Source of the DNA: an uncultured Actinomycetota bacterium
GTDB taxonomy: Bacteria; Actinomycetota; Actinomycetes; Streptosporangiales; Streptosporangiaceae
Length of the DNA: 64,000 nucleotides
Reading direction: 5' to 3'
NCBI GenBank assembly: GCA_963719705.1
Contig: CAVRCV010000012.1
Span: 4,581-68,580 of the forward strand
Below are positions 29,389 through 52,688 of this stretch, one piece after another. Under the pieces are notes generated by a model. The model was not told the DNA's origin and did not search any database. It saw only the letters and a list, made by a program, of their open reading frames with translations. Numbering within the stretch: position 1 is the first letter of the stretch; every line of letters starts with the position of its first letter. Made by a program: the position numbers and the translations under genes.

Positions 29389-29418
29389 CGGATCCTCCAA
29401 CGGTAGATAAATGGGAAA

Positions 29419-29441
29419 CAAAAAAGCCCCGCTGAGGGGCT
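29419..29441 (-). terminator. Intrinsic terminator inside the leuS 5' leader
   Basis: Minus strand reads AGCCCC-UCAGC-GGGGCU followed by UUUUUU. It ends 30 nt before the leuS ATG. No upstream minus-strand gene exists for it to terminate. Confidence 0.5.
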
Positions 29442-29442
29442 G

Positions 29443-29480
29443 CCGCGCTGACGAGTCCTGCCGGGGTGCGGTCAGCGCGG
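29443..29480 (-). promoter_or_regulatory. Perfect 10-bp hairpin overlapping the leader-ORF stop codon (attenuator element candidate)
   Basis: CCGCGCUGAC (18-nt loop) GUCAGCGCGG on the minus strand. The 5' arm can alternatively pair with UCAGCG in the downstream terminator. Confidence 0.4.
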
Positions 29481-31482: not shown

Positions 31483-31762
31483 GACGGGAGGCTATCCAGC
31501 GGCACCGACAGCCCGGCCGCGCCCGGCCCAGCTAGAGCTCAGCCACTCGGCGTAGGCCGCCTCACCCTGATGACGGAGGCCCGGTTCGTGCCGAACTGGC
31601 ACTGTCCTAGCGGCGGGGTGCTCGAATCCGTGGCACGGTCCCGAACCGCCGGTATGCCTCAGCCGACAGCAAGGGAGCCGCGGCGCAGTGCCCGAACACC
31701 GACTCTCGCTCGCCATCAACGGCCGCGAGCGCCAGCTGCACAGCAAGCTGGTCGCCTTTGAG

Positions 31763-33067
31763 ATGCCTGCCCCTGGCTCAGGTAACGGGAACGCCGGCGG
31801 GCATCCGGGCACCGCATGGTCGGCCGCGATCGTGGGCCTCGGCTACGTCGGCCTGCCGACGGCGGTAGCCCTGCACGGGCAGTGCCCGGAGATCATCGGA
31901 ATCGACATCAGCCAGCAGCGGCTAGCGGACATCTCCGCGCGCCGCGCCGACATCACGGCCTCCTATCAGTCGTCCCTGGACGCCGCGCTGGCGGACGGTG
32001 CTATGCGGCTGACCAGTGACCCTGCCGCCGTCGCCGGGGCCGATGCCGTGATCATCTGCGTGCCTACCCCGGTCGACTCCGATCACGTGCCCGAGGTGTC
32101 GGCGCTACGCAGCGCGTGCGCGGAGGTCGCCGCGCACGCCCGCGAGGGCCAGACCATCATCCTGACCTCGACCAGCTTCGTCGGCACCACCAGGGAGCTG
32201 ATCGCCGAGCCGCTCAAGCAGCGCGGGCTACGGGTGGGAACGGACGTATTCGTCGCCTTCAGCCCGGAGCGGATCGACCCTGGCAACCACGATCACCGCC
32301 AGGAGGAGACCCCGCGCGTGGTCGGCGGCGTCACCCCGGAGTGCAGCGCACGGGCAGCCTGGGTGATCCGGCACCTGACCGATGTCGTGTACCTGGTCAG
32401 CTCGCCGGAGGCGGCCGAGGCGACCAAGCTGTACGAGAACATCTTCCGGGCGGTCAGCCTGGCGCTCGCCAACGAGTTCGCCGATGCCTGCGGAGCGCTG
32501 CAGCTGGACCCCATCGAGGTGACCCTGGCTGCCGGGACCAAGCCCTACGGGTTCCTTGGCGCCTTCCCGGGACCGGGCGTGGGCGGGCACTGCATCCCGT
32601 GTGACCCCTATTACCTGCTCTGGCAGCTGAACCAGCAGGACCGCCCATCGCCGCTGATAGAGCAGGCGATGCGATCGATCGCCGGGCGCCCGGACCGGGT
32701 AGCCGAGCGGGGCGCCGAGCTGCTGGCGCAGGCCGGACGGCCGCTGAGCGGTGCCAGGGTGCTCGTCATCGGGGTCAGCTACAAGGCGGGCGTGCAGGAC
32801 CTGCGCGAGTCCCCGGCGCTGCCGCTCATCGCCGGGCTGATCCGCCGGGGCGCCGATGTGCACTACTACGACCCGCTGATCCCGGAGGTCCGGCTGGACG
32901 ACGGCCGGCTGATCCGCAGCGAACCGGACCCCGCTGGCGCCGGCTGGGACCTGGCAGTGATCCACACACTGCACCCGGGTGTCGACTACTCGTGGGCGCA
33001 GGACTGCCCGCTGCTGCTCGACGCCACCTATCAGTTCGACGCCGTACCGCATCGCGCGGTGGTCTGA
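31763..33067 (+). CDS. Nucleotide-sugar dehydrogenase (UDP-N-acetyl-hexosamine dehydrogenase type)
   Basis: IVGLGYVGLPTAVAL Rossmann motif, KLYENIFRAVSLALANE, GPGVGGHCIPCDPYYL (WecC/Cap5O/WbpA-type catalytic Cys motif rather than the UGDH type). The ATG 31763 start is inferred. Confidence 0.8.
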   Translation: MPAPGSGNGNAGGHPGTAWSAAIVGLGYVGLPTAVALHGQCPEIIGIDISQQRLADISARRADITASYQSSLDAALADGAMRLTSDPAAVAGADAVIICVPTPVDSDHVPEVSALRSACAEVAAHAREGQTIILTSTSFVGTTRELIAEPLKQRGLRVGTDVFVAFSPERIDPGNHDHRQEETPRVVGGVTPECSARAAWVIRHLTDVVYLVSSPEAAEATKLYENIFRAVSLALANEFADACGALQLDPIEVTLAAGTKPYGFLGAFPGPGVGGHCIPCDPYYLLWQLNQQDRPSPLIEQAMRSIAGRPDRVAERGAELLAQAGRPLSGARVLVIGVSYKAGVQDLRESPALPLIAGLIRRGADVHYYDPLIPEVRLDDGRLIRSEPDPAGAGWDLAVIHTLHPGVDYSWAQDCPLLLDATYQFDAVPHRAVV

Positions 33068-34439
33068 TGAGCAGGTCGGTGGCGGCCGGTGAGTTCCCCC
33101 GCGGCGATACGAGCACGCCGGCGGTGGTGCTGAAGTTCGACCAGAACGTCATGCACCACGGCGGACTCGGGGTCATCCGGAGCCTCGGGCGGCTGGGCGT
33201 GCCGGTGTACGGCGTGCATGAGGAGCCCTGGGCCCCGGCCGCGAGCTCCCGGTACCTCAGCGGCCGCTATTACTGGCGGCCCAGCCTCGCCGACACCGGC
33301 CGGGTGCTGGCGGGTCTGCAGCTGCTGGCCCGGCGGATCGGCAGCCCGGCCGTGCTGATCCCCACCGATGACGCCGGCTCGATCTTCCTCGCTGAGCACG
33401 GCGGTGAGCTGCGGGAGTCCTTCCTGTTCCCGGATCCTCCGCCGGCCTGCCCCGGCGCCTGGCCGGCAAGTTCTCGCTGTACCAGCTCTGCCGCCAGCTT
33501 GGCGTGCCGTGCCCGCGGGCCGCCATGCCGGAGTCCCTGGCCGCGGCACGGGAATTCGCGGCCGACAGCGGTTACCCGCTGATCGCCAAGCTGGCCACCC
33601 CGTGGCGCGGCGGCGGGCAGCTGCGCAGCACCTCGATCGTGGCGGACGCAGCCGGGCTGGACCGGGTCTACCAGGCCAGCGAGCGGGGCAAGGCCGGCCT
33701 GATGCTGCAGGAATTCGTGCCCGGCGGGCCCGGCGACGACTGGTTCTTCCACGGCTACTGCGACGCGGGCTCGGCCTGCAGGCCGGCCTTCACCGGGGTC
33801 AAGGAGCGGTCCTACCCGGCGCACGCGGGGCTGACCTGCCTGGGCCGCTCGGTCCCGAACCCCCCGCTGCGGGCGGCGATGAGCAGCCTGCTGAAGCGGC
33901 TGTCCTATCGCGGGATCGTGGACCTCGACCTGCGGTTCGACGCCAGGGACGGCGAGTACAAGCTGCTCGACTTCAACCCCCGGCTCGGCGCGCAGTTCCG
34001 GCTCTTCACCGACAGCGCGGGCGTCGATGTCGCCAGGGCCCAGTACCTCGACCTGACCGGGAGCGCGATTCCCGAGGGCGAACAGCTTGCCGGGGGCGGC
34101 TTCCTGGTCGAGAACTACGACCCGATCGGCGCGCTCGGCTACTGGCGCAGTGGTGAGCTCGGGCTCCGGTCCTGGGCCGCCTCGCTGCGCACCGTCGACG
34201 AGACCGCCTGGTTCGCCAGCGACGACCTGCGGCCGTTCGGGCTGATGTGCCTGCGCATGGGCTGGCGGATGGCGACCCGCCGGCTCGCTCGCCGGGAGCG
34301 TCCTGGTCACCGGTCCGAGCCCAGGTACGCGGCCGGCCGGGCCGTCCGGCCTGCGCCAGGCGCGCCGCGCCAGCTGGCCGGGGTCATGAACGGGCGGCCA
34401 GCTGTGCCGCACCGAAACAGGGAGGGGACACGAGCATGA
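33067..34439 (+). pseudogene. ATP-grasp family carboxylate-amine ligase (COG3919-like), one frame break
   Basis: ATG overlaps the upstream stop (TGATG). N-terminus PAVVLKFDQNVMHHGGLGVIRSLGRLGVPVYGV. After FPDPP (~33440) the adjacent frame gives AGLPRRLAGKFSLYQLCRQLGVPCP...GYPLIAKL...LMLQEFVPG...IVDLDLRFDARDGEYKLLDFNPR (ATP-grasp core). Confidence 0.65.
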
Positions 34440-35668
34440 GCGAGACCATCGACGTGGCCGTCGTGGGAGCCGGGCCTTACGGCCTGTCGGTTGCCGCGCA
34501 CCTGCGGGCGGCCGGAATTGGCTTCCGCCAGTTCGGCCTGCCGATGCGGCTGTGGCGGGCGGCGATGCCGCGCGGGATGTTCCTCAAGTCGCAGGGCTTC
34601 GCCTCGAACCTGTCCGACCCGTCCGGCCAGCACACGCTGGAAGCCTTCTGCCAGGCCACCGGCCGGCCGTATGCCAGCTACGGGCTGCCGGTGCCGCTCG
34701 ACACCTTCGTCAGCTACGGCCAGTGGTTCCAGGACGAGCTTGTTCCCGATCTCGAAGAGGTGCTGGTCACCGACCTGGTCCGGACCGGCGGCCAGTACGA
34801 GCTGAGCCTGGCCGACTCCGGCCAGGTGCGGGCCCGCAACGTGGTCATCGCCGCCGGGGTGGAGCACTTCGCCTACCTGCCGAAGCAGCTGTCCGGGCTG
34901 TCCGGCTCGGTCTGCACGCACAGCAGCGCCCATGCTGACCTGGGCAGCTTCCGCGGCCAGAGCGTGGCAGTGGTCGGCGCCGGCCAGTCGGCGCTTGAGT
35001 CAGCGGCGCTGCTGCACGAAACCGGGGCGAACGTGCAGCTGCTGGCCAGAACGCGGAACCTGGCCTGGAACGGGCAGCCCCTGGACCCGGACCGCCCGTT
35101 CCTGCAGCGGATGCGGGAGCCCGAGGCCGGGCTCGGCTCGGGCTGGAACACCTGGTTCTACTCCAACCAGCCGGGCATGTTCCGGCACCTGCCCTCCTCC
35201 ACCCGGCAGCGCCGGGCCAGGACCGCACTCGGGCCGGCCGGCGCCTGCTGGCTGCGCAGCCGGGTCACGGGCCAGTTTCCCGTGCTGCTCGGCCATTCGC
35301 TGCAGTGGGCCAGGGAGCAGGACGGCGGGGTACGGCTCGGCGTCACCGGACCGGAAGGGGCCTACCGGGAGGTGGCCGCCGATCACGTCATCGCGGCCAC
35401 CGGCTTCCGCCCCGACCTGCGGCGGCTGGCGTTCCTGAACGACCAGCTCCGCGCGCAGCTGCGGGTCACCGGTACCACGCCGGCCGTCGGGCGCGACTAC
35501 CAGTCCTCGGTCCCCGGCCTTTACTTCGTCGGTCCGGCCGTGGCGCCGACCTTCGGGCCGGTGATGCGCTTTGTCTACGGCTCCGGGCACGCGGCGACCG
35601 TGGTGGCAGGCCGGCTGGCCGGCACCACGGGCAGCAGGCAGCGCGCCGTGGTCGGAGCGCGCCGGTGA
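34436..35668 (+). CDS. FAD/NAD(P)-binding oxidoreductase (flavin monooxygenase-like, two dinucleotide folds)
   Basis: ATGA overlap with the upstream gene. DVAVVGAGPYGLS (GxGxxG) and VAVVGAGQSALESA (second GxGxxG), ATGFRPD, LYFVGP. Confidence 0.65.
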   Translation: MSETIDVAVVGAGPYGLSVAAHLRAAGIGFRQFGLPMRLWRAAMPRGMFLKSQGFASNLSDPSGQHTLEAFCQATGRPYASYGLPVPLDTFVSYGQWFQDELVPDLEEVLVTDLVRTGGQYELSLADSGQVRARNVVIAAGVEHFAYLPKQLSGLSGSVCTHSSAHADLGSFRGQSVAVVGAGQSALESAALLHETGANVQLLARTRNLAWNGQPLDPDRPFLQRMREPEAGLGSGWNTWFYSNQPGMFRHLPSSTRQRRARTALGPAGACWLRSRVTGQFPVLLGHSLQWAREQDGGVRLGVTGPEGAYREVAADHVIAATGFRPDLRRLAFLNDQLRAQLRVTGTTPAVGRDYQSSVPGLYFVGPAVAPTFGPVMRFVYGSGHAATVVAGRLAGTTGSRQRAVVGARR

Positions 35669-37052
35669 CAATAGCGCAGTACGCACCGAGCCGGGAGAGC
35701 GCGGACGCACCCGTTTCCGTCGCGCTGCCGCGGGCCGGAACTGGCCGGCCGCCAGCGCGATCGTGGCCGCTGCCGCGCTGCCGCTGGCCGACCTGCTCGG
35801 CCTGACCGCCGCGTACGCCGTGGCGGGCAGGCTCGGCTGGCCGACCACGGCGTACGTGCTGGCCGTGCTGGCCGTGCTGGCCGCGAGCGGATTGCACCGG
35901 CTGCGGATCTGCCTGCGGGTGTCCGATCAGGCCGGGCGGATCGCGGCCGCTGCCGCGCTGCCGCTGCTGGTCCTGCTGGCCTGGCTGCCGGCGGCGCTCG
36001 CCCTGCGGCTGGCGCTGTCGTCCGCCGCGGCAGTGATCTTCTTCCGCTGCCTGTGCTGCGCCGCACTGCGGGCCGCCCACCGGCGCGGCCTGCTGACCGA
36101 GGCAGCCCTGGTGGTCGGGGCCGACCCGGTCGGCGTGCAGCTGGCCGGCCTGCTGCGCGACCACCCCGAGCTCGGCCTGCGGCCGGTTGGCTTCCTCGAT
36201 AACTGGCCGTCCGGCGGGCCGCTGCCGCTGCCGCTTCTCGGCCGCCCCGCCGATCTAGCCGCGGTGGTGGCCGACAGGCACGTCCGGCGGGTCATCGTGT
36301 GCTTCCCGGCGGGAGCCGACGAGGACCTGGTGACGGTGCTGCGGGCCTGCCGGCCGCTGCCCGCCGACGTCTGCCTGGTAGCCCGGCTGCACGAGCTGGG
36401 CGCGGCTGTCCCCCGCGCCTGCCTGGACGAGGCATGGGGTATCCCGCTTGTCCCGCTGCGGCGGCTCGGGCAGGCCCCGGCCTGGCGCTGGCAGAAGCGT
36501 GCCTTCGACGTCTGCGTCGCGGCCGTGCTGCTCGCCCTGCTCGCTCCGGTACTCGCGGTGCTCGCCGCGGCGGTCCGGCTGCGGTCCGGTAGCCCGGTGC
36601 TGTTCCGGCAGGTCCGGCGCACCGGCCGGGGACGGTGCGCGCCGATCCTGAAGCTGCGCACCCTTGACCCGCATGCCGACCCGGATACCCGCTGGTCAGT
36701 GCCCGGGCAGCGATGCTCGGCGCTGGGCCGGTGGCTGCGCGGCACGCACCTCGACGAGCTGCCTCAGCTGGTGAACGTGCTGCGCGGGCAGATGTCGCTG
36801 GTGGGGCCGCGGCCCGAGCGGCCCTACTTCGCCGACCGCTTCAGCCAGCAGATCCCTGGCTACCGCGACCGGGACCGGATGCCCGCCGGGATCACCGGAT
36901 GGGCGCAGGTGCACGGGCTGCACGGTGATACCTCGATCCTGGACCGGGTCCGGTTCGATAACCAGTACATCGAGTACTGGTCACCCTGGCTGGACCTGGT
37001 CATCCTGGCCCGGACACTGACCTCGGCCGCCCCGGCCCGGGGGCGGCGATGA
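35571..37052 (+). CDS. Polyprenyl-phosphate glycosyl-1-phosphate (sugar) transferase, WbaP/EpsB-like
   Basis: N-terminal TM block, central Rossmann-like region, C-terminus KRAFDVCVA..LLAPV..., DELPQLVNVLRGQMSLVGPRPERP, GITGWAQV (bacterial sugar transferase signature). The true start is uncertain (overlaps the upstream gene by ~100 nt if 35571). Confidence 0.8.
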   Translation: MSTAPGTRRPWWQAGWPAPRAAGSAPWSERAGDNSAVRTEPGERGRTRFRRAAAGRNWPAASAIVAAAALPLADLLGLTAAYAVAGRLGWPTTAYVLAVLAVLAASGLHRLRICLRVSDQAGRIAAAAALPLLVLLAWLPAALALRLALSSAAAVIFFRCLCCAALRAAHRRGLLTEAALVVGADPVGVQLAGLLRDHPELGLRPVGFLDNWPSGGPLPLPLLGRPADLAAVVADRHVRRVIVCFPAGADEDLVTVLRACRPLPADVCLVARLHELGAAVPRACLDEAWGIPLVPLRRLGQAPAWRWQKRAFDVCVAAVLLALLAPVLAVLAAAVRLRSGSPVLFRQVRRTGRGRCAPILKLRTLDPHADPDTRWSVPGQRCSALGRWLRGTHLDELPQLVNVLRGQMSLVGPRPERPYFADRFSQQIPGYRDRDRMPAGITGWAQVHGLHGDTSILDRVRFDNQYIEYWSPWLDLVILARTLTSAAPARGRR

Positions 37053-37822
37053 CCGTGCCCAGCGGGCGGCCAGCCGCCCGCCCGCCCGCCGACACCCGGC
37101 TCAGCCTGCGCGCCGTGCCGCTGATCCTGATGTACCACGCGATCGCGGAGCCCTCCGAGGATCCGCACCAGCTGGCGGTGTCACCGGCCAGGTTCGCCGA
37201 GCAGATGGACTGGCTGGCCCGCAGCGGCCTGCGCGGAGTCGGCGTGGCGGAACTGCTCGACGCGATCCGGGCCGGCCGCCAGCGCCGGCTCGTCGGCATC
37301 ACGTTCGACGACGGCTACTCCAGCGTGCTCGACGCCGCGCTGCCGGTGCTGCAGCGGCACGGCTTCGGCGCCACCGTGTTCGTCATATCGGATCTGCTCG
37401 GCGGCACCAACGAGTGGGACCAGGGTCCGTCCTGGCGGCTTCTCGACAGCGCCGGCGTCGGCGCGCTGGCCAGCGCGGGCATCGAGATCGGCTCGCACGG
37501 CGCGACCCACGTCCGGCTGGCCGGGGCCGCGGCCGACCTGCTCAGGGCGGAGGTGCACGGGAGCCTCGGCACGCTCGGCCTGCTGGCCGGCACCGAGGTC
37601 CGCGGGTTCGCCTACCCGTACGGCTCGATGGACGCCGCCGCGCGGCAGGCCGTGGCTGAGGCCGGCTACGCCTATGGCTGCGCGGTGGCGGCATCGCGTG
37701 CCCAGCTGGGCCTCATGGCACTACCGCGGGTTTACGTCGGCCAGCGCGACAGCGCCGCGCGCCTGGCCGCCAAGCGCCGCCTGTATCGCGGCCGGATCGC
37801 ATTGCGAGGAGAGCGCCAGTGA
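37049..37822 (+). CDS. Polysaccharide deacetylase (CE4/NodB homology)
   Basis: ATGA overlap with the upstream gene. LMYHAI, GITFDDGYSSV (canonical TFDDG), IGSHGATH, FAYPYG. Confidence 0.8.
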   Translation: MTVPSGRPAARPPADTRLSLRAVPLILMYHAIAEPSEDPHQLAVSPARFAEQMDWLARSGLRGVGVAELLDAIRAGRQRRLVGITFDDGYSSVLDAALPVLQRHGFGATVFVISDLLGGTNEWDQGPSWRLLDSAGVGALASAGIEIGSHGATHVRLAGAAADLLRAEVHGSLGTLGLLAGTEVRGFAYPYGSMDAAARQAVAEAGYAYGCAVAASRAQLGLMALPRVYVGQRDSAARLAAKRRLYRGRIALRGERQ

Positions 37823-38943
37823 AAGTCCTGCATGTCATCACGGGCCTCGGCGTCGGCGGCGCCGAGCTGCAGCTATGGTCGGTGCTCCGGCATTCCCGCC
37901 ATGCGGCCGACGTCGTGACGCTGTACAACCCCGGCCCGGTCGCCGAGCGGCTGCACGGCGACGGAGTGCACGTCCGCGACCTCGGGATGCAGCGCAATAC
38001 GCAGCTGGCCGCGCTGCCCAGGCTCCGCCGGATCATCAGCGACGGCGGCTATGACGTCGTGCACACCCACCTGTACCGGGCGCAGATCTACGCCCGCCCG
38101 GCGGCGCGGCTGGCCCGCACGCCCGCCGTGGTGACGACCGAGCACTCGATCGGCGAGACGCACATCGAGCGGCGCAAGATGACCGCGGGAGTCCGCGCCC
38201 TGTACCTGGCCACCGACTACCTGTGCTGCGACGCGACCATCGCGGTGTCCGACGCGGTGCGCGACCGGCTGGCCAAGTGGGGCGTTCCGGCCAGGAAGAT
38301 CACCGTCATCCCGAACGGGGTGGACTTCAGCCGGGCCGCCTTCGACCCGCAGGCCAGGACGCGGATCCGCGCCGAGTTTGACATACCGCCCGGCGCGTTC
38401 GTCGTCGGCGTGCTTGGCCGCCTGGATCCGATCAAGCGCTACCACATGGTGATCGAGGCCGTGGCCCCGATGCTGGACCGCGAGCACAAGCTGCTCATCG
38501 TCGGGGACGGGGACGAGCGCGCGCACCTGGAGGAGGTCGCCCGCGCGCACGATGTCAAGGATGACGTGATCTTCGCCGGCGAGCGGCACGACATCGGCGC
38601 GATGCTCTCGGCGCTCGACCTGTTCGTCGCCTCGTCCTCGCAGGAGACCTTCGGGCTTTCCGTGCTCGAGGCGCTCGCCAACGGCCTGCCGGCCCTGTAC
38701 ACCGCCTGCCCGGCCCTGGACGATGTGCCGACCGCGCGGGCGCGCAAGGTGGCGGGCACGCCGGAGGCGCTGCGGGCCGAGATCGCGGCGGTGATGGCGG
38801 CGCCGCTCCCGCCGCGGGAGCCCGCGCCGGAAGTGCAGGAGAACTATGGCATTGAGGCGGTGGCCGGCCGGATTGACGACCTCTACGAGGGCCTGGTCGC
38901 CAGGCCGGGCCGCCGCGGTACCAAGGCGGCCGCCCGTCGATGA
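37819..38943 (+). CDS. Glycosyltransferase family 4 (GT-B)
   Basis: GTGA overlap with the upstream gene. MKVLHVITGLGVGGAE, C-terminal FVASSSQETFGLSVLEALANGLP (E..7E-type motif). Confidence 0.8.
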   Translation: MKVLHVITGLGVGGAELQLWSVLRHSRHAADVVTLYNPGPVAERLHGDGVHVRDLGMQRNTQLAALPRLRRIISDGGYDVVHTHLYRAQIYARPAARLARTPAVVTTEHSIGETHIERRKMTAGVRALYLATDYLCCDATIAVSDAVRDRLAKWGVPARKITVIPNGVDFSRAAFDPQARTRIRAEFDIPPGAFVVGVLGRLDPIKRYHMVIEAVAPMLDREHKLLIVGDGDERAHLEEVARAHDVKDDVIFAGERHDIGAMLSALDLFVASSSQETFGLSVLEALANGLPALYTACPALDDVPTARARKVAGTPEALRAEIAAVMAAPLPPREPAPEVQENYGIEAVAGRIDDLYEGLVARPGRRGTKAAARR

Positions 38944-40271
38944 CCAGCCAGGCCGAGACCCTATCCGCCCCGGCGGCGACTTCCGCCGAGACGGCCGACG
39001 CGCTGCTGCGCGCGGTCGCGTTCCTGGCGCTGCTGGGCATCCTCGGCCTGATCGGCTGGCATATCTGGCTCAAGGCCCGCGGACTGTCCGGCATCGGGGT
39101 CGTCTACACGGTCGTGGTCAGCAGCTACGTGCTGTCGCGGTACGGCCTGGCCGCGCTCTACCGGAAGCCCCGCGAGGCCGGCCTCGAGCCGAATGTCGCG
39201 ATCATCGTGCCGGCCTTCAACGAGGGGCTTGCCGTCGTCCGCACCATCGATTCCTGCCTCGCCATCGACTACCCGCGGGAGAAGATCGAGCTCGTCGTGG
39301 TGAACGACGGCTCCAGCGATGAGACCTGGCAGTACATGCTGCAGGCGGCCGGCCGGCATTCCCCCGGCGTGGTGCGCTGCATCGACCTCGGCTCCAACCA
39401 GGGCAAGCGGGCCGCCATGGCGGCGGGCGTGCGGGCCACCAAGGCCGAGATCATGGTGTTCATCGACTCCGACTCGCTGCCGGCCAGGGACGGCGTGCGC
39501 AAGCTGGTCCAGGTCTTCGCCGACCCGAAGGTGGGCGCGGCCTCCGGGATCACCTTCGTCCGCAACGCCACCACGAACGCGCTGACCAAGATCCAGCAGG
39601 CCCGTTACTACGTCTCCTTCCAGCTGCTGAAGAGCGCCGAGTCGGTGGTCGGCGCGGTGGCCTGCAACCCTGGCTGCTTTTCCGCCTACCGCCGCAGCGC
39701 CGTGCTCCAGGTGCTGGAGCGCTGGGAGAACCAGCGCTTCCTCGGCGTGCCGTGCACGTTCGGCGACGACCGGGCGCTCACCAACATGATCCTGCGCAAG
39801 GGCTGGATCAGCCGCTACCACTCGGGCGCGTTCGCCTGGACCGAGGTGCCCGAGAACTACCGGAAGTTCTTCCGCCAGCAGCTGCGGTGGAAGAAGTCCT
39901 GGCTGCGGGAGGGCCCGATCCTGATGTCGCACATCTGGCGGACCCGGCCGCTGGCCTTTCCCGCAGTCTGCATCCAGACGCTGGCGGGCCTGCTGAGCCC
40001 GTTCATCCTGATCTATAACCTGGGCTGGCACACTTACGTCACCGGCGTGCCGCCCGCGCTGTACGGCATCGCGCTCTACCTGGTGGCCTGCACCTACGGG
40101 CTGCTCTACCGGTCCCAGCGCAACGACGGCCTGTGGAAGTGGGCCATCATCGGCACCTTTTTCTTCATCGCCTTCTCACCCCAGCTCATCTGGGCGGGCT
40201 TGCGCATCCGGGACACCTCCTGGGGAACCCGCGCGGTCGCGCCAGCAGAGCCGGCCGGAGGTACCTCGTGA
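38940..40271 (+). CDS. Processive family-2 glycosyltransferase, class I hyaluronan synthase (HasA)/NodC-like
   Basis: ATGA overlap with the upstream gene. TM-flanked GT-A domain: AIIVPAFNEG, VVNDGSSDET, NQGKRAAMA, IDSDS, FVRNATTNALTK, FGDDRALTN, QQLRWKKSW (QxxRW), C-terminal SWGTR. Confidence 0.8.
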   Translation: MTSQAETLSAPAATSAETADALLRAVAFLALLGILGLIGWHIWLKARGLSGIGVVYTVVVSSYVLSRYGLAALYRKPREAGLEPNVAIIVPAFNEGLAVVRTIDSCLAIDYPREKIELVVVNDGSSDETWQYMLQAAGRHSPGVVRCIDLGSNQGKRAAMAAGVRATKAEIMVFIDSDSLPARDGVRKLVQVFADPKVGAASGITFVRNATTNALTKIQQARYYVSFQLLKSAESVVGAVACNPGCFSAYRRSAVLQVLERWENQRFLGVPCTFGDDRALTNMILRKGWISRYHSGAFAWTEVPENYRKFFRQQLRWKKSWLREGPILMSHIWRTRPLAFPAVCIQTLAGLLSPFILIYNLGWHTYVTGVPPALYGIALYLVACTYGLLYRSQRNDGLWKWAIIGTFFFIAFSPQLIWAGLRIRDTSWGTRAVAPAEPAGGTS

Positions 40272-40284
40272 GGAGTGAACGTCC

Positions 40285-43200
40285 ATGACCGGACGCATCA
40301 GACGAACCACCGGGCGTGCCGTCATCGCACTGCTGATGGCCATCCTGGCCCTGCTGTTCGCCCGGCCGTTCGACGTGCTGCCCGCACACGCCCAGCCGAC
40401 CACGATCATCTCGCTCACGTTCGACGACAGCGATGAGGACCAGTACACCAACGCGTTCCCGCTCCTGCAGCAGTACGGGTACACCGGCACGTTCTTCACG
40501 ATCACCGGGTACATCGGCGTCAACTCGGGCTACATGACGCTGCCCCAGCTACAGGCGCTCTACGCCGCCGGGAACGAGATCGCCGGCCACACCGTGCTGC
40601 ACGAGAACCTCCTGCAGGTCAATACCGCGGAGGCAACCCGCGAGATCTGCGAATCCCGTAACACGCTGCTGAACTGGGGGTTCCCGGCTACCGGCTTCGC
40701 CTACCCCTACGGCGCCTTCAACTCAGCCACTGAGAGCATCGTGGCGCAGTGTGGCTATGACTACGCGCGCTCGGACTTCAGCCTCCAGTCGCCGGCGGCT
40801 GCTCGGGCTGTGGCTATACCGACCCGGTCCCGCCCGCCGATCCCTACAACATCGCGGCACCGCAGTCGATCCAGGACACCTGGACGCTGGCGCAGATCGA
40901 GAGCCTGGTGACGAACGCCGAGAGCACCGGCGGCTGGGTGCCGATCATCTTCCACCACGTCTGCGATGACGCCTGCGACCCCTACTCGATTACCCCGGCG
41001 AATTTCAGCGCCTTCCTGGCCTGGCTGCAGACGCAGCCGGTCTCGGTCGAGAACATGAACCAGGTGATGGGCGGCCCGGTCAACCCCTCGGTCAGCGTCC
41101 CGTCGGTGCCGCCGGCCCCGCCCGGCACCAACGGGGTCGCCAACCCCACACTGGCGACCGCCGACCCCAACAACCCGGGCGTTCCTGACTGCTGGATCAC
41201 GTCCGACTACGGGACCAACACCGCCAGCTTCGCCGAGACCAGCCCCGGCTACGACGGGTCATCCACGGCCGAGACCATCACCATGAGCGGCTACAGCAAC
41301 GGTGACGCGAAGCTGCTGACCAGGCAGGACCTCGGGCAGTGCGCGCCGAGCGTGGTGGACGGTGACCAGTACGCCCTCTCGGCGGAGTACCAGAGCACGG
41401 CGACCACCCGGTTCGCGATCTACACACAGCAGCCAAACGGTGGCTGGGAGTACTGGATGGAGAGCCCTGTTTTCGCTGCGTCCAGTAACTGGACGCAGGC
41501 ACAATGGGCCACGCCGGCCATACCAGCCGGCGTCACGGCGGTGAGCTTCGGGCTCATCATCGAAGCCAACGGCACTCTGACCACCGACGACTACTCGCTG
41601 GAGGATACCGGCGGCCCGCCGACCTACCCGACGGTGTCGCTGACCGGCCCGGCCGCGAACTCGACCCTGAGCGGGCCGGTGACCTTCACCGCGAACGCGT
41701 CGTCCGGTGTCGGGATCCAAGACGTGAACTTCCTCGTCGACGGGGTGGTCGTGGCGACGAGCACGTCGGCGCCTTACACCGCGACCTGGAATTCGGCGAC
41801 CGTGGCCGACGGGCCGGTGACGGTGACGGCCCAGGCCGTCGACATCTCCGGCGACCAGACGACCACGGCGGGGCAGTCGGACACGATCTCGAACGCGGCC
41901 AGCCGGGGCGGCAGCCTGATCGCCAACGGCCTGCTCACCACCAACACCGGCGGCGGATCCACGCCGGACTGCTGGCATGAGGGCGGCACGGGCACCTTCA
42001 CGCCCACCTGGAGCTACAACACCAGCAACGGACCGCCGGGCGGCGGCGACTCCGAGACCGTCGCGATCAGCTCCTACACCAGCGGCGACGCGGTGCTGGA
42101 CCAGAACCAGAACGGCAGCGCCTGCACGCCGGGGGTCACCGCGGGGCAGCAGTACACCCTGGGCGCCTGGTACAAGTCGACCGCGGCGACAAACATCCTG
42201 GCCTGGTACCTGAACTCCAGCGGCAGCTGGGTGTACTGGACCCAGAGCCCCGCGTTCGCCGCCTCCAGCGGCTGGGCGCAGGCCGGCTGGACCACTCCGG
42301 CGGTGCCGGCCGGCGCCACCGAGCTGAGCTTCGGCCTCGACCTGAACACGGCCGGCTCGCTGACCACCGGTGACTACACCATGACGGCCGGGGCGCCGGC
42401 GCCGGCCACGGTGACGCTGACCGGCCCGTCGTCCGGGGCGACGCTGAGCGGGCCGGTGACCTTCACCGCGAATGCCTCCTCCGAGATCGGCGTGGCGAAC
42501 GTCGCCTTCCTGGTCAACGGCGTGGTCGTGGCGACCAGCACCTCCGCTCCCTACACCGCGACCTGGAACTCCACCTCGGTCAGCGACGGCCCGGTGACGG
42601 TCACCGCCCGGGTCACCGACGCGGCCGGCAACCAGGTCAGCACCACAGGCCAGCCGGACACCATCGCCAACGCGCCCAACCAGGGCGGCAACATGCTGGG
42701 CAACAACCTGCTGCAGCTCAACACCGGCGGCGGATCCACGCCGAACTGCTGGCACGAGGGCGGCACCGGGACCAGCACCTACTCCTGGTCCTACAACACC
42801 GCCAACAGCCCGCCGCCCGGCGGCGACTCCGAGACCGTCGCGATCAGCTCCTACACCAGCGGCGACCGGATCCTCACCACCACCCAGGACACCAGCGCCT
42901 GCTCACCCAGGGTCACCGCCGGGCAGGCCTACACCCTCGGCGCCTGGTACCAGTCCACCGCGGCGACCAACATCATCGTCTACTACCTCAACTCCAGCGG
43001 CAGCTGGGTGTACTGGACCCAGAGCCCGGCGCTCCCCGCCGCCAGCGGCTGGACGCCCGCGGCCTTCACCACGCCGCTGGTGCCGTCCGGCGCCACCGAG
43101 CTGAGCTTCGGCGTGGGCCTGGGCGCGGCCGGCTCGCTGACCACCGGCGGCTACACGATGACGGCGGGCCCGCCGGTGCCGCCCAGCGTGTCGCTGACCG

Positions 43201-43949
43201 GCCCGTCGTCCGGGGCGACGCTGAGCGGGCCGGTGACCTTCACCGCGAATGCCTCCTCCGAGATCGGCGTGGCGAACGTCGCCTTCCTGGTCAACGGCGT
43301 GGTCGTGGCGACCAGCACCTCCGCTCCCTACACCGCGACCTGGAACTCCACCTCGGTCAGCGACGGCCCGGTGACGGTCACCGCCCGGGTCACCGACGCG
43401 GCCGGCAACCAGGTCAGCACCACAGGCCAGCCGGACACCATCGCCAACGCGCCCAACCAGGGCGGCAACATGCTGGGCAACAACCTGCTGCAGCTCAACA
43501 CCGGCGGCGGATCCACGCCGAACTGCTGGCACGAGGGCGGCACCGGGACCAGCACCTACTCCTGGTCCTACAACACCGCCAACAGCCCGCCGCCCGGCGG
43601 CGACTCCGAGACCGTCGCGATCAGCTCCTACACCAGCGGCGACCGGATCCTCACCACCACCCAGGACACCAGCGCCTGCTCACCCAGGGTCACCGCCGGG
43701 CAGGCCTACACCCTCGGCGCCTGGTACCAGTCCACCGCGGCGACCAACATCATCGTCTACTACCTCAACTCCAGCGGCAGCTGGGTGTACTGGACCCAGA
43801 GCAAGGCCATCGCCGCCTCCGCCAGCTGGGCGCAGGCGTCTTTCACCACGCCGGCCGTGCCGTCCGGTGCCACCGAGCTGAGCTTCGGCGTGGGCCTGGG
43901 CGCGGCCGGCTCGCTGACCACCGGCGGCTACACGATGACGGACAACTAA
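40285..43949 (+). pseudogene. Secreted CE4 polysaccharide deacetylase fused to four CBM-like jelly-roll and three Ig-like modules (about 1221 aa), one frame break
   Basis: Signal peptide (AVIALLMAILALLFARPFDVLPAHA), SLTFDDSDEDQY, AGHTVLH, FAYPYG. After CGYDYARS (~40780) the frame of ORF 40908..43949 continues upstream as PVAGGCSGCGYTDPVPPADPYNIAAPQSIQDTWTL...GGWVPIIFHHVCD. Then the repeated modules follow. Confidence 0.7.
41628..43949 (+). repeat. Three tandem 777-bp coding units (Ig-like + CBM-like); units 2 and 3 share ~605 bp of perfect identity
   Basis: Units start at ~41628, ~42405, ~43182. 42421-43025 is base-for-base identical to 43198-43802. Identical antisense ORFs at 42551..42778 and 43328..43555 confirm the 777 offset. 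Confidence 0.9.
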
Positions 43950-43950
43950 C

Positions 43951-45516
43951 TTGGCTGGACATCAGCCCCGGGCGATGCCAGAACGAAGCGCACTCGCACG
44001 CTGGCGGCGGCGGGCGGCCGCCCTCGCCGCCGCGGTGGTGATCTCGAGCCTGCTCGGCGCCGCCGGGTACGGGTTCGTGCTCAAGTCACTGCCCTACCAC
44101 ACGCCGCAGCTGCTGCCGCCTCAGGTGAGGGTCACCGCGCAGGATCTCGCCGCCCTCTCGACCTACCCGGGTGGTGTCCGCGGGGTGCCGGTGCTCACCT
44201 GGCGGGATGTCTCGCACCGGCCCGGCTTCCTGGTCACGACGCCGGCCCGGTTCGCCACTGAGCTTGCGGTGCTGCGCCGGGACGGGTTCCACAGCGTCCG
44301 CCCGGCCGCGCTGGCCGCGCTCGCCGCCGGGCGGCACGTCGCCCTGCCCGCCCGGCCGGTCATGCTGACCTTCGACGGCGGCCTGGCCAGCGACTGGACG
44401 ACGGTCGATCCGATTCTCCGGCAGTACGGCTTCACCGCCGTCGTGTTCATCGACCCGGACGACGTGGCGCTCAAGAGCCCTTCCTACTTCCTGACCAGCG
44501 AGGAGCTCAGCGCGATGGCCGCCTCCGGGCGCTGGGATATCGGCCTGCAGCTCGCTGACGAGCGGGTACCGATGACGGCTGTCGAGCGCCGGGCGGCCGG
44601 CCTGCCGCGGGTGGGGAGAACCGAGCTCGAGACGCTGACCGAGTGGAGCGAGCGCACCGCAGTCGATGCGGCCGCGAAGCAGGACGAGCTGGCGGACATC
44701 ACCGGCAGGCCAGTCACCGCCTTCGCCTGGCCGGTGGCGCTGACCCAGGGAATCAGCAACCTGGAGGCGCCGCAGGTGCTTTACCCGGTACTCAGGCGGC
44801 TGTTCGGCGTGGTCTTCGGGCGCCCCGCCAGCGGAGCGGCGACTTTCATCACCCCCGGCTCGGCCGGGCGGCCGCTGCCGCGCCTGCAGATCACCGCGGC
44901 GACCACGCTGCGGGCGCTGGCCGAGAACATGCGCGTGGGGGTTCCCAGCCCGCCGCCACCGGCTCCGCTGGTGCTGCCCTGGACGGCCGACAGCGGCCAG
45001 TGCGTGCGGGATAACGGCACCCTCAGGCTGCGCGGCCGCGGCTTCGAGCTGTGTACTGCCGACGCCGACGGCAGCCAGTGGCGCAACTACCAGCTCAGCC
45101 TGGACCTCGGCTTCGTTAAGTCGGCCGACCTGACCGCGATCATCGAGCTTCGGCTCAGCACCGTCGGGCGCATCGAGATCGCGATCGGCAGCGTCGGGTT
45201 CAGCGTGAAGCAGCTCGTTGGCCTGCACTGGAGGCTGCTGGGCACGTTCACGGCGCCCCGGCCCGCCGCGGGCCGCGGAGCGACGCTGTCCTTCCTGCAT
45301 ACCGGTGCGCTGTCGGCCACCCTGCGGCTGACCGGGTCGGTACTCGCGATCCGGGTGGGCGGGATAACGGCCAGGATGAAGGTAAGCCCGGCCATCAGCC
45401 ATGGCGTGATAGCAGTAGGCCTCGTGTCGCCGAGCCGCATCGAGACGGTCACCTGCAGCCGGCTGCACATCAGCGTCGGCCCGGTGCCGACGACAGCCGG
45501 GTCGGACGGCGACTAA
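43951..45516 (+). CDS. Membrane-anchored CE4-like protein with degenerate NodB motif and C-terminal beta-sandwich (ConA/LamG-like) domain
   Basis: One N-terminal TM (AAALAAAVVISSLLGAAGYGFVL). VMLTFDGGLASDW replaces TFDDG. The C-terminal ~190 aa is beta-rich (WRNYQLSLDLGF.., IEIAIGSVGFSVK..). TTG 43951 or ATG 43975 start. Confidence 0.6.
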   Translation: MAGHQPRAMPERSALARWRRRAAALAAAVVISSLLGAAGYGFVLKSLPYHTPQLLPPQVRVTAQDLAALSTYPGGVRGVPVLTWRDVSHRPGFLVTTPARFATELAVLRRDGFHSVRPAALAALAAGRHVALPARPVMLTFDGGLASDWTTVDPILRQYGFTAVVFIDPDDVALKSPSYFLTSEELSAMAASGRWDIGLQLADERVPMTAVERRAAGLPRVGRTELETLTEWSERTAVDAAAKQDELADITGRPVTAFAWPVALTQGISNLEAPQVLYPVLRRLFGVVFGRPASGAATFITPGSAGRPLPRLQITAATTLRALAENMRVGVPSPPPPAPLVLPWTADSGQCVRDNGTLRLRGRGFELCTADADGSQWRNYQLSLDLGFVKSADLTAIIELRLSTVGRIEIAIGSVGFSVKQLVGLHWRLLGTFTAPRPAAGRGATLSFLHTGALSATLRLTGSVLAIRVGGITARMKVSPAISHGVIAVGLVSPSRIETVTCSRLHISVGPVPTTAGSDGD

Positions 45517-46771: not shown

Positions 46772-47905
46772 CTAAGCCCGGTCGACCGTGAAGTGGGTGA
46801 ACTCAAACTCCGTGTAGTCACCGCGGATGCCAACCCGGCCCGGCTGGGTGATCGGCGGCACGTCGCCCGCACCGCTGTCGAGCGCCTGCAGCCGCAGCTG
46901 GCCGTTCAGCCAGAGCATTATCTGGACGCTATCGTTCTTGTTCACCACGCTCACCCGGACCTGCTCCCAGTGGCCGGTCACGCTCTTGCCCCGCAGGGTG
47001 GCCAGCGTGTAGTAGCTGCCTCCGTCGACCGCCCCGCCCGGCACCTTCTTCTTGATCACGATGACGCCGTCCACGCGGTCGACGCTCACCACGTAGAGCA
47101 GGGCCGGGCTCTGATAGCGAAGGAACACGTGGACGCCCTGCCAGCCGGGCGTCGGCCCGTTCGACGGGGGCACGAAGCGCTGCACTAGCAGGTCGAAAGA
47201 GACCGTCACGTTCTGGAAATCTCTGCGCTGGGTAATGAGGCGGAAAACCGACGAGTCGGTGTTGGTCACCGACCTCGGCCCGGTCGGCCCGCGGTCCGGC
47301 AGGCCAGTCCAGCCCGCGTTGTCGTGCACGAACAGCGACCCGCTGGTGACGATCCAGGTTGGTGAGCGCACAGCGGCCGGATTGCCGGGATTGAAATACG
47401 CGAACTCATTCGTGATCAGGCGATTGGGCCCGCCGAAGTTATCCGAGAGCAAAGGCCGGTGCTGCACCACGATCACCACGATGATTGCGGCCGCGACCAG
47501 GACGGCGAAAGCCGTCCAGCCCAGCCAGGTTTGCCTGCGGGTGGGATGCCAGCCGAGTGCCCTGGCCGGCCGCACCGGGCCGGGCGGGGTTCCGGTGGTA
47601 GCCGGCTGCTGCGACCAGACCGGATCGGCACCGTCGTCCGTGGCGGCGGGCTGCTGTGACCAGACGGGATCGGCGCCGGCATCGGCCGTGGCAGGCTGCT
47701 GTGACCAGACCGGATCGGCGCCGGCATCGGTGGCAGCCGGCTGCTGTGACCAGATGGGATCGGCCGTGGCAGGCTGCTGCGGCCAGACGGGATCGGCGCC
47801 GGCATCGGCCGTGGCCGGGTACTCCGGCCCGTCCGCGTCGGTACCTGCGCCGCCCGTGGATGAGTGCACAGGTTGAATTCTCCGGGTCCGGCGGCTAGAC
47901 CGCAA
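46772..47905 (-). CDS. Membrane-anchored protein with Pro/Gln-rich repeats and extracytoplasmic ConA/LamG-like (DUF1080-like) domain
   Basis: N-terminal repeats GADPVWSQQPATADA, one TM (WLGWTAFAVLVAAAIIVVIVV). C-terminal beta-sandwich pattern: VTVSFDLLV..., VHVFLRY, GHWEQVRVSVVN, GRVGIRGDYTEFEFTHFTV. Confidence 0.5.
   Translation of the reverse strand: MRSSRRTRRIQPVHSSTGGAGTDADGPEYPATADAGADPVWPQQPATADPIWSQQPAATDAGADPVWSQQPATADAGADPVWSQQPAATDDGADPVWSQQPATTGTPPGPVRPARALGWHPTRRQTWLGWTAFAVLVAAAIIVVIVVQHRPLLSDNFGGPNRLITNEFAYFNPGNPAAVRSPTWIVTSGSLFVHDNAGWTGLPDRGPTGPRSVTNTDSSVFRLITQRRDFQNVTVSFDLLVQRFVPPSNGPTPGWQGVHVFLRYQSPALLYVVSVDRVDGVIVIKKKVPGGAVDGGSYYTLATLRGKSVTGHWEQVRVSVVNKNDSVQIMLWLNGQLRLQALDSGAGDVPPITQPGRVGIRGDYTEFEFTHFTVDRA
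47600..47815 (-). repeat. ~45-bp imperfect tandem repeats (about 5 copies) encoding (G)ADP(V/I)W(S/P)QQPA(A)T(A)D(A)
   Basis: Recurrent GGCTGCTGTGACCAGACCGGATCGGCGCCGGCATCGG-type units on the plus strand. Confidence 0.6.
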
Positions 47906-50208: not shown

Positions 50209-50435
50209 CAACTAATGGCGATACCGGAATTCTGGCCTGACTTCTGTCAACTTGCTACCGTTATCGTGCGTCGTACCTGATGTGACCCCCGGTATCCAGG
50301 GGTGGAGGTTCCGGTGTGGTCACGCCTGAAAACGTACTATTACAGTTGCCTGGATTCGAGGGAACTGGCCTAAATGCCCGAATCGTAACCGGGTGAGCGG
50401 GCCCGGGCTCTCGGAGCCGGGGGGGAGCAGGGGCC

Positions 50436-52501: not shown

Positions 52502-52503
52502 GA

Positions 52504-52640
52504 CCCCTCTGCTGGTTGCGAGGGCGGGGTCTCACCGCGTGGCCCCGGAATCGCACCGGGTCGCTCCGCCGGTCGGGCGGATGCTGGCCGGCTATCCGGC
52601 CGCACCGTGGAATTGCACCACCGGCAGCGTAGCAGCCGGG
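52504..52640 (-). promoter_or_regulatory. Candidate FMN (RFN) riboswitch
   Basis: Minus strand has, in the right order, GUGG-UGCAAUU-CCAC (P2-like), UAGCCGGCCAGC (compare AGCCCGCGAGC), UCCGCC-CGACC-GGCGGA, CCCGG-UGCGAUU-CCGGG (P5-like), and GCC-ACGCGGU. CUGCU...AGCAG closing helix has a 3' side that runs into the GAGGGG SD of the rib gene. The 3' GUCCGGAUGG box is not clearly seen. Confidence 0.45.
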
Positions 52641-52688
52641 ACAGGCCTGCCTACTGGGCAGTACGGCGATGCCCCGGCTGCCGCTCTG

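Follow-up and report, generated by a model that had tools for sequence, protein, structure and literature searches.

We analysed a 64,000-nucleotide stretch of DNA (hereafter the window) from an uncultured Actinomycetota bacterium of the Streptosporangiaceae (assembly GCA_963719705.1, contig CAVRCV010000012.1, positions 4,581 to 68,580 of the forward strand) and found a nine-gene operon (g1 to g9) that joins a polyprenyl-phosphate glycosylphosphotransferase (PGT) to a membrane synthase of family GT2 resembling hyaluronan synthases (HAS). The usual view is that synthase-dependent exopolysaccharides (EPS) such as hyaluronan, poly-N-acetylglucosamine (PNAG), cellulose and Pel need no lipid-diphosphate primer to start; Salmonella O:54 is the one textbook exception and has barely been studied. 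We tentatively read the operon, at slightly less than even likelihood, as a lipid-primed, synthase-dependent pathway for an N-acetylhexosamine (HexNAc)/HexNAc-uronic surface polymer, built from two portable modules. An earlier, sequence-only reading of the window had described the nine genes as a single system. They are indeed coupled, but a synteny check showed two separately conserved modules that are joined in a narrow clade.

Gene content and coupling of the operon

The operon, an associated gene (d2) and the gene overlaps quoted in the sequence-only reading are as follows.

31688..33067, plus strand: g1, nucleotide-sugar 6-dehydrogenase of the UDP-HexNAc type (Pfam, NCBIfam, PDB)
33067..34439, plus strand: g2, ATP-grasp ligase (weak ATP-grasp signal; family called 'D-aspartate ligase' by JGI)
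34436..35668, plus strand: g3, class-B-type flavin monooxygenase-like oxidoreductase (Pyr_redox_3, Pyr_redox_2, Lys_Orn_oxgnase)
35665..37052, plus strand: g4, large PGT with a GTG start overlapping the g3 stop
37049..37822, plus strand: g5, CE4 deacetylase, predicted cytoplasmic (no signal peptide, transmembrane (TM) or hydrophobic segment found)
37819..38943, plus strand: g6, cytoplasmic GT4 glycosyltransferase (Glyco_transf_4 and Glycos_transf_1; NCBIfam equivalogs not reached)
38940..40271, plus strand: g7, membrane-embedded processive GT2 of the HAS/NodC/chitin-synthase type (Glyco_tranf_2_3, Chitin_synth_2)
40285..43949, plus strand: g8, secreted CE4 deacetylase with repeated units of a jelly-roll domain, similar to a carbohydrate-binding module (CBM), and a Big_7 Ig-like domain (Pfam)
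43975..45516, plus strand: g9, N-terminally membrane-anchored degenerate CE4-like domain with a C-terminal beta-rich domain (Pfam)
46772..47905, minus strand: d2, Pro/Asp-rich repeats, one TM helix and an extracellular ConA-like beta-sandwich (AlphaFold2 (AF2) and Foldseek)
33065-33069, plus strand: g1/g2 overlap, TGATG
34436-34439, plus strand: g2/g3 overlap, ATGA
37049-37052, plus strand: g4/g5 overlap, ATGA
37819-37822, plus strand: g5/g6 overlap, GTGA
38940-38943, plus strand: g6/g7 overlap, ATGA

Open reading frame (ORF) listing and frame plots of G+C at third codon positions (GC3) gave nine co-directional coding regions on the plus strand, from 31688/31763 to 45516, in a window of about 72% G+C. 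The five listed overlaps all lie exactly where they had been placed. A sixth, between g3 and g4 (GTGA, 35665-35668), is masked in the window by a frameshift in g4 and is a 4-nt overlap in L001, a 34-kb JGI metagenome contig that encodes a GT2 protein identical to g7. After frameshift correction, six consecutive overlaps of 1-4 nt link g1 to g7, and the g7-g8 and g8-g9 intergenic gaps are short. By GC3 signals, overlaps and gaps, g1 to g9 form one tightly coupled operon, as had been proposed. A promoter and terminator scan of 31-48.3 kb gave nothing above shuffled expectation, and an Rfam search of the whole window gave zero matches and hence no riboswitch lead. Searches with Pfam, NCBIfam and the PDB bore out the domain assignments of all nine products, with a weak signal for the ATP-grasp enzyme.

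The start of g1 had been annotated at ATG 31763; GTG 31688 has a Shine-Dalgarno sequence (AAGGGAG) and is used here instead. The g1 product contains all three UDPG_MGDP_dh domains (Pfam) and scores 358 bits with TIGR03026, over the cutoff. The UDP-ManNAc dehydrogenase and TviB equivalogs stayed under their cutoffs, yet ranked above the UDP-glucose dehydrogenase models, and the best PDB matches were Cap5O and the UDP-ManNAcA dehydrogenase of P. horikoshii (5e-48). With Cap5O/UDP-ManNAc dehydrogenase closest, the earlier 'UDP-HexNAc-type' call is reasonable. The dehydrogenases beside this GT2 family in four other loci also ranked UDP-ManNAc dehydrogenase/TviB over UDP-glucose dehydrogenase, and none of those next to the HAS-like GT2 family reaches an equivalog cutoff. 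We rejected the possibility that the dehydrogenases of Trebonia and Pilimelia (35-39% identical) are UDP-glucose dehydrogenases, given the same UDP-ManNAc-dehydrogenase-first ranking. A HexNAc-uronic product of the dehydrogenase is a reasonable guess; the window showed no UDP-GlcNAc 2-epimerase.

The g2 product gave weak matches to CPSase_L_D2 (4e-4, Pfam) and to pyruvate/biotin carboxylases (1e-6 to 1e-5, PDB), and a profile search of the PDB with the ATP-grasp family returned generic ATP-grasp matches alone; it has more than 2,500 close homologues. For g3 the best PDB match was a flavin monooxygenase (FMO) of S. maltophilia (4c5o/4a9w). The PGT g4 has five predicted hydrophobic segments, Bac_transf (176 bits) and CoA_binding_3 domains, and scores 313 bits with TIGR03025 EPS_sugtrans against a cutoff of 296. 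The deacetylase g5 (Polysacc_deac_1, 84 bits) resembles the PgaB N-terminus, HfsH and IcaB, all under their cutoffs, has PDB matches to IcaB (4wcj) and PgaB, and retains the CE4 motifs TFDD, HGATH and FAYPYG.

The synthase and its distance from characterised systems

The best PDB matches of g7 were the hyaluronan synthases 8smm and 7sp7 (1e-28 to 1e-26), in an alignment that covers residues 147-432 and includes the C-terminal membrane region. The motifs DSD (176-178), GDDR (275-278), QQLRW (313-317) and WGTR (428-431) are invariant in 14 aligned homologues, and hydrophobic segments (21-39, 340-358 and 403-421) lie on both sides of the GT domain. By these catalytic motifs and flanking membrane helices, g7 is a membrane GT2 of the HAS/NodC/chitin-synthase type, and it is the predicted polymerase and translocase of the operon. 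More than 1,700 strong homologues exist, named 'hyaluronan synthase' by JGI and 'GT2' or 'chitin synthase' by NCBI.

We asked whether this is simply an ordinary PNAG system (PgaC/IcaA with PgaB/IcaB, or MatAB-like), hyaluronan system (HasA/HasB) or chitin/chitosan system to which the extra genes are irrelevant. A GT2 with extracellular CE4 proteins follows PNAG logic, g5, g8 and g9 match PgaB/IcaB models, g7 scores 130 bits with PgaC/IcaA (TIGR03937), and a dehydrogenase gene directly upstream of the GT2 gene mimics hasB-hasA; JGI, too, names the family 'hyaluronan synthase'. The scores are far below the cutoffs, however: 130 against 422 for PgaC/IcaA, 175 against 550 for NodC (TIGR04242), and 62 against 322 for PgaB. 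The CE4 domains of g5, g8 and g9 are most similar to those of the PgaB/IcaB type. All tested dehydrogenases rank UDP-ManNAc dehydrogenase/TviB first and so are not HasB-like, a PgaD/IcaD or MatA-type partner is missing, and the d2 family is unannotated. We regard this explanation as improbable.

NodC is nevertheless the best NCBIfam match of g7, and a cytoplasmic CE4 (NodB logic) beside an enzyme that acylates or ligates recalls the assembly of Nod factors, which would make g7 a NodC-like oligosaccharide synthase and the operon a source of short deacetylated, acylated signals of the chito-oligosaccharide type. The NodC score reaches a third of the cutoff, NodA and NodIJ are missing, and Nod-factor chemistry offers no role for the tightly linked dehydrogenase. 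Moreover, the large secreted or anchored CE4 proteins with CBM/Ig repeats and the ConA-like ectodomain imply an extracellular polymeric substrate, and we give the signal hypothesis very little credence.

Two separately conserved modules

We scanned one genome per GTDB species, which gave 408 GT2 relatives. The 80 best loci, each taken with flanks of 10 kb, were scored by tblastn against all operon proteins. The scan delineated a core that consists of the dehydrogenase, the HAS/NodC-like GT2, the CE4 proteins and d2. Among the 50 loci with a GT2 at least 56% identical, the dehydrogenase is a neighbour in 41 (directly upstream in 35), and g9-like, g8-like and d2-like proteins are encoded in 46, 43 and 44, respectively. 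Across all 80 loci, a g9-like gene is found beside the GT2 gene in 56 and a d2-like gene in 45. The sequence-only reading listed nine genes, all of which are present, but it missed d2, which is a conserved tenth component. Core loci come from Actinoallomurus, Actinomadura, Micromonospora, Pilimelia, Actinoplanes, Spirillospora, Actinocorallia, Trebonia and several lineages of metagenome-assembled genomes (MAGs), and cultured strains of Actinoallomurus and Micromonospora carry the core. In Actinoallomurus sp. NBC_01490 and Micromonospora chersina the core genes form a coupled operon with the d2-like gene inside it; the order in isolates is dehydrogenase, GT2, CE4 (~500 aa, g9-like), CE4 (~450 aa, g8-like), CE4 (~250 aa) and d2-like. 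The ~250-aa CE4 is a secreted protein of the NodB/PdaB type with marginal similarity to g5, which we considered and rejected as its orthologue. The core is a widespread and apparently unstudied actinobacterial module.

The second module, the cassette, comprises the ATP-grasp enzyme, FMO, PGT, cytoplasmic CE4 and GT4 (g2 to g6). Homologues of g2 to g6 were present in two of the 80 genome loci, L004 and L005, which are the closest relatives (83-85% GT2 identity) and differ in gene order. A metagenome scan for the cassette gave 80 further loci. The g2-g3 pair is adjacent in nearly all of the ~83 scored loci, the exceptions being short or at a contig edge, and on contigs of sufficient length the PGT, CE4 and GT4 genes are nearly always present as well. 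In all, about 80 metagenome loci have these five genes as a single coupled block. None of the 80 scanned metagenome loci encodes the HAS-like GT2; on three long contigs the coupled ATP-grasp/FMO/PGT/CE4/GT4 block is present and this GT2 is missing.

The cassette has three recurrent contexts. In type I (at least 18 loci) it is followed by genes for a PelF-equivalog protein (181 bits against a cutoff of 100) and for a membrane protein in which 10 or more TM segments are predicted. Such loci may be actinobacterial relatives of Pel loci that have a front end for lipid priming. These loci include L086, L087, L096, L099, L102, L113, L131, L134, L137, L141 and L157, and some of them encode a ~704-aa secreted protein with zero Pfam matches in between. 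In type II (at least 11 loci) the cassette contains an embedded dehydrogenase and is followed by genes for an epimerase/dehydratase, a GH18 protein, a small GT2, a protein with three TM segments and a CE4 protein. The embedded dehydrogenase is nearer to g1 (69-75% identity) than is the core dehydrogenase of the isolates (50-56%). Type III (several loci) has a different PGT upstream. On two unrelated contigs (L086, ~7.1-11.4 kb; L169, ~6.7-10.9 kb) the cassette lies immediately downstream of rplM-rpsI-glmM, which makes the precursor enzyme phosphoglucosamine mutase a neighbour of the cassette.

Cassette and core occur together in the window and in L001, L170, L004, L005 and L169, in at least four arrangements: that of the window, shared by L001 and by L170 (same gene order, different upstream neighbours), and those of L004, L005 and L169. 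The L169 locus encodes the cassette and d2 in one direction and g9 and g8 on the opposite strand, so that it is not a single transcription unit. Among the loci recovered, the fusion occurs only in a Trebonia-like clade. In four Actinoallomurus species (L013, L015, L017 and L020), a gene for a full-length PGT lies directly upstream of the dehydrogenase-GT2 pair, at ~6.6-8.2 kb. This PGT is ~41% identical to g4 and in L020 has 483 aa with CoA_binding_3 and Bac_transf domains; a divergent sugar nucleotidyltransferase gene stands beside it in L020. Judged by these neighbourhoods, a PGT was recruited to the same core twice independently, in the Trebonia-like clade and in Actinoallomurus. Because the linkage is repeated and independent, we argue that the coupling of PGT and synthase is functional and not accidental; this is our main argument. 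For elongation of a polyprenyl-diphosphate-linked acceptor by g7, which we presume, the linkage is indirect support.

Several points weigh against a lipid-primed synthase. An adjacent PGT is absent in most core genomes, including many of Actinoallomurus, Actinomadura, Micromonospora and Trebonia, and the synthase of these genomes presumably starts without a dedicated primer, like HAS/NodC. Of the cultured carriers of the core, Micromonospora chersina has no PGT gene beside it, and Actinoallomurus sp. CA-150999 has the order PGT-dehydrogenase-GT2. The cassette-core fusion was seen only in MAGs and metagenomes. A weak Wzz match downstream of the type III cassette in L143 weakens the claim that the cassette pairs solely with synthase-type partners. 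The cassette is not specific to synthases and may be no more than a building block common to EPS loci. At the level of single proteins, g1, g5, g6 and g7 did not reach NCBIfam equivalog cutoffs, and the AF2 model of an ATP-grasp homologue (P0121, from an alignment of 23 sequences that are 67-83% identical) had a predicted local distance difference test score (pLDDT) of 45.

The main rival takes up these points: two independent pathways would be co-transcribed, namely a self-priming HAS-like synthase making a free or loose exopolymer and a separate pathway for a polyprenyl-diphosphate-linked glycan. We consider this possible though unlikely, and hold the same view of its corollary that the cassette glycan is short, deacetylated and re-acylated and is flipped or used elsewhere (Wzx with LCP proteins, or O-glycosylation). 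The rival accommodates the core genera without an adjacent PGT, the varied partners of the cassette in the 80 metagenome loci and the Wzz-like match in L143; class I HAS and NodC, furthermore, require no lipid-diphosphate primer. It is less easily reconciled with a cassette that leads straight into g7 through 4-nt overlaps, with the cassette-core arrangements, of which L169 keeps both modules without a single transcription unit, or with a different PGT independently joined to the same core in Actinoallomurus. The separate glycan would also call for a flippase. Pfam searches of the main ORFs found no Wzx, Wzy, Wzz, ABC-2 (ABC_tran, ABC2_membrane) or GtrA protein, a negative that covers the 64-kb window, and genes elsewhere in the genome may supply such functions. 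The sequence-only reading had likewise noted no flippase, polymerase, chain-length regulator or ABC exporter in the operon. If the modules are independent, the finding becomes a new and widespread but ordinary HAS-like/CE4 EPS operon.

Proposed pathway

From gene content, coupling, fold families, motif conservation and modular distribution we infer the following biochemical steps for a lipid-primed, synthase-dependent pathway. The PGT g4 would transfer a sugar-1-phosphate onto polyprenyl phosphate, and the GT4 g6 would add a second sugar to give a polyprenyl-diphosphate-disaccharide. The CE4 protein g5 would remove an N-acetyl group from the lipid-linked (or nucleotide-linked) unit in the cytoplasm, for which HfsH and ArnD are analogies. 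The ATP-grasp enzyme g2 could then form an amide, either on the freed amine (re-acylation) or on a uronate carboxylate. Both reactions have counterparts: in B. cereus an ATP-grasp enzyme encoded next to a PGT N-acylates a UDP-amino sugar, UDP-yelosamine (PMC11626204), and ATP-grasp enzymes of the C. jejuni capsule, e.g. Cj1438C, amidate glucuronic acid (PMC11800379). The FMO g3 would tailor the product, and the dehydrogenase g1 would supply UDP-HexNAc-uronic acid.

The synthase g7 would elongate the presumed acceptor processively and thread the presumed product through its own channel. HAS, BcsA and chitin synthase are established examples of synthesis coupled to translocation, and self-translocation by g7 would make Wzx, Wzy or an ABC exporter unnecessary. 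Outside the cell, g8 would partially de-N-acetylate the polymer, on which it would be retained by its CBM/Ig repeats, and the degenerate CE4 protein g9 and the ConA-like d2 would probably bind or guide the nascent chain. With its lipid-diphosphate end, the chain could remain membrane-anchored or pass to the wall via ligases encoded elsewhere. A uronic, partly deacetylated and possibly amidated polymer is plausible from this gene set. Such a polymer, which would be zwitterionic, could matter for aggregation and adhesion in acidic peat soils, where organisms of the source type are common.

A broader idea, which we think doubtful, is that the cassette is a portable initiation or anchoring module that makes a de-N-acetylated, re-acylated polyprenyl-diphosphate-disaccharide as the start point for unrelated non-Wzy polymerases. 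In this operon the polymerase would be the HAS-like GT2, and at other loci a PelF/PelG-like or small-GT2 system. If so, actinobacterial synthase-type exopolysaccharides would be lipid-primed and could be covalently attached to the wall, which would answer how Pel-type and HAS/PNAG-type polymers are initiated and retained on the surface in Gram-positive bacteria. If the PGT-synthase coupling is functional, the operon offers a tractable model for the initiation and anchoring of synthase-made polymers in monoderms.

Comparison with characterised pathways

In the literature that could be searched we found no characterised counterpart of the core, the cassette or the two combined, whether from actinomycetes or from other organisms, in agreement with the mismatch to known actinomycete glycan systems claimed in the sequence-only reading. 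The imp, wps and gsf clusters of A. missouriensis are of the Wzx/Wzy or GtrA type (PMC13390465, PMC12691653), and a study of bacterial chitin synthases concerns proteobacterial horizontal transfers (PMC5122149).

That reading had also held that the operon combines priming with synthase logic. A PGT is indeed joined to a HAS-like GT2, but the combination is not unprecedented: in the Salmonella Borreze O:54 pathway, the O antigen on which the WbbF synthase acts is linked to undecaprenyl (PMC2841628). By analogy, this pathway is the closest formal precedent for a PGT-primed synthase. WecA, WbbE and WbbF provide a polyprenyl-phosphate transferase for priming, an adaptor glycosyltransferase, and elongation and export by a HAS-like synthase, without Wzx/Wzy or an ABC transporter (PMC2841628). 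In gene content, g4, g6 and g7 provide the same in a coupled operon, with no exporter found in the window. Unlike the operon, O:54 belongs to a Gram-negative lipopolysaccharide, is a ManNAc homopolymer and involves no deacetylases, ATP-grasp enzyme or flavoenzyme.

Class I HAS (streptococcal HasA/HasB; the Chlorella virus and Xenopus enzymes, 7sp6-7spa and 8smm) resemble g7 as single membrane GT2 enzymes with D-x-D, GDDR, QxxRW and WGTR motifs, and their systems likewise place a sugar dehydrogenase gene beside the synthase and need no separate exporter. They differ in having a UDP-glucose dehydrogenase as partner, in place of the UDP-ManNAc/UDP-GlcNAc dehydrogenase type found here, and in lacking the CE4 proteins, the ConA-like protein and the PGT cassette. 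PNAG systems (PgaABCD, IcaADBC, Streptomyces MatAB) share a GT2 with extracellular CE4 proteins for partial de-N-acetylation of a HexNAc polymer. However, g7 is nearer to HAS/NodC than to PgaC, PgaD/IcaD and MatA are missing here, and the operon adds a dehydrogenase, PGT, GT4, ATP-grasp enzyme and FMO.

Among lipid-linked pathways, the Caulobacter holdfast (PGT HfsE, glycosyltransferases HfsJ/HfsG, and HfsH) has in common with the operon a PGT-initiated, lipid-linked oligosaccharide and a cytoplasmic CE4 acting before export, but depends on Wzx/Wzy (HfsF, HfsC/I) and an outer-membrane export complex, none of which was found in the window. The B. subtilis tuaA-H operon is similar in its PGT (TuaA), GT4 enzymes (TuaC/H), dehydrogenase (TuaD), GT2 (TuaG), uronic wall polymer and lipid carrier. 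It differs in its Wzx-, Wzy- and Wzz-like proteins TuaB/E/F, in a GT2 that is not a membrane synthase and in the lack of a CE4 protein. As for a Wzx/Wzy pathway in general, the window encodes the priming PGT (g4), and no flippase, polymerase or chain-length regulator was found in it. The Pel system (GT4 PelF, PelD/E/G, PelA) is linked to the operon through the sister loci in which the cassette lies directly upstream of a PelF-equivalog gene; the window has the HAS-like GT2 in place of PelF/PelG. Synthase-made exopolysaccharides with CE4 proteins and PGT-initiated lipid-linked glycans are thus both known, and what is new is their combination, its modular history and three unannotated protein families. 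These families, all abundant, are the ATP-grasp enzyme, the ConA-like d2 protein and the degenerate CE4 protein.

Frameshifts in the window

Three of the nine genes are disrupted in the window as given. The ATP-grasp gene g2, which had been taken as intact, is split into ORFs 33067-33582 and 33504-34439 in different frames, and g8 into ORFs 40285-40911 and 40908-43949, also in different frames. The ~1221-aa g8 product of the sequence-only reading is the sum of 208 and 1013 aa across this frameshift. In g4 the first ~29 codons are out of frame. These breaks could mean that the operon is decaying and the pathway non-functional in the source organism. In L001, whose DNA is 99.2% identical to that of the window over 14.2 kb, g2 (457 aa), g4 (462 aa) and g8 (962 aa) are intact. 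Base-level alignment with L001 located 1-nt deletions at ~33441 (g2), ~35751 (g4) and ~40796 (g8), each in a GC-rich CCGG/GGCC-type run, and counted seven single-base indels in 22 kb. The essential gene for leucyl-tRNA synthetase (LeuRS; window 26464-29448, minus strand) is likewise broken over at least four reading frames in the window and intact in L001 (970 aa). With LeuRS split and seven indels in 22 kb, the window is an indel-rich assembly in which arguments from ORF length are unsafe. Synonymous differences between window and L001 predominate (48:22 synonymous to nonsynonymous codon differences overall; g1 8:0, g2 4:0, g3 6:0, g7 2:0), a pattern of purifying selection on g1, g2, g3 and g7 as far as codon comparison can tell. 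Since the genes are intact in L001 and LeuRS is also fragmented, the g2, g4 and g8 frameshifts are probably assembly or sequencing errors, and decay is very unlikely.

Extracellular proteins

The sequence-only reading counted three CE4 modules. Three domains are present, but g9 lacks the metal-binding residues, so that two (g5 and g8) look catalytically competent from their motifs. The g8 product has a signal peptide, a Polysacc_deac_1 domain (83 bits), three Big_7 domains and Endotoxin_C-like matches, also matches the HfsH model, and retains TFDD, HTVLH and FAYPYG. Its orthologues in isolates consist of a CE4 domain and a single C-terminal module, and g8 itself contains the following repeat.

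42415..43941, plus strand: in-frame 777-nt (259-codon) tandem duplication in g8 (self-BLAST, offset scanning)

The copies share 611 identical nt (42415-43025 and 43192-43802), and the duplication adds one unit of jelly-roll and Big_7 domains. Tandem Repeats Finder, with its period limit of 500, did not report this repeat. L001 has a single copy and may have collapsed the repeat.

The g9 ORF opens at TTG 43951, and ATG 43975 is the likely start. Its product matches Polysacc_deac_1 (29.8 bits) and the N-terminal region of PgaB (44 bits). In place of the CE4 motifs it has TFDG for TFDD, a deleted HxxxH and FAWPVA. The loss of the His pair is common to L004, L006 and L007, and g9 orthologues of other genera keep both motifs.

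Pfam and PDB sequence searches with d2 gave zero matches. It has 705 homologues, and every listed one bearing a name is called 'hypothetical'. The AF2 model of its ectodomain (pLDDT 92.5) gave CBM66, legume lectins, GH16 glucanases and an ulvan lyase as top Foldseek matches. About five Pro/Asp-rich repeats ('ADPVWSQQPA.TD.G') precede the TM helix at the N-terminus of d2 (47560-47905, minus strand); this cytoplasmic repeat region is not present in the isolate orthologues.

Genes around the operon

The gene between g9 and d2 (45671-46750) encodes a coiled-coil protein of 359 aa that has repeats rich in Ala and Glu and a DivIVA domain (35 bits); it has no counterpart in L004 or the isolate loci. 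Further on, genes for a LuxR response regulator (48230-48994) and a GT4 (48994-50208) adjoin each other, and another LuxR response regulator gene starts at 50436. This trio (48230-51200) is kept in L001 and partly in L004, and it may regulate or extend the polysaccharide locus. The rest of the window encodes, among others, aminotransferases, prolyl-tRNA synthetase, LeuRS, an amidase, riboflavin genes, DnaE, and the two LuxR regulators and the additional GT4 just described. One ORF on the minus strand (51218-53561) combines Lum_binding (riboflavin synthase) and DHBP_synthase domains and may be a fusion made by a frameshift. Its neighbour encodes a protein of the Peptidase A4 (eqolisin) family, which is mostly fungal and uncommon in bacteria.

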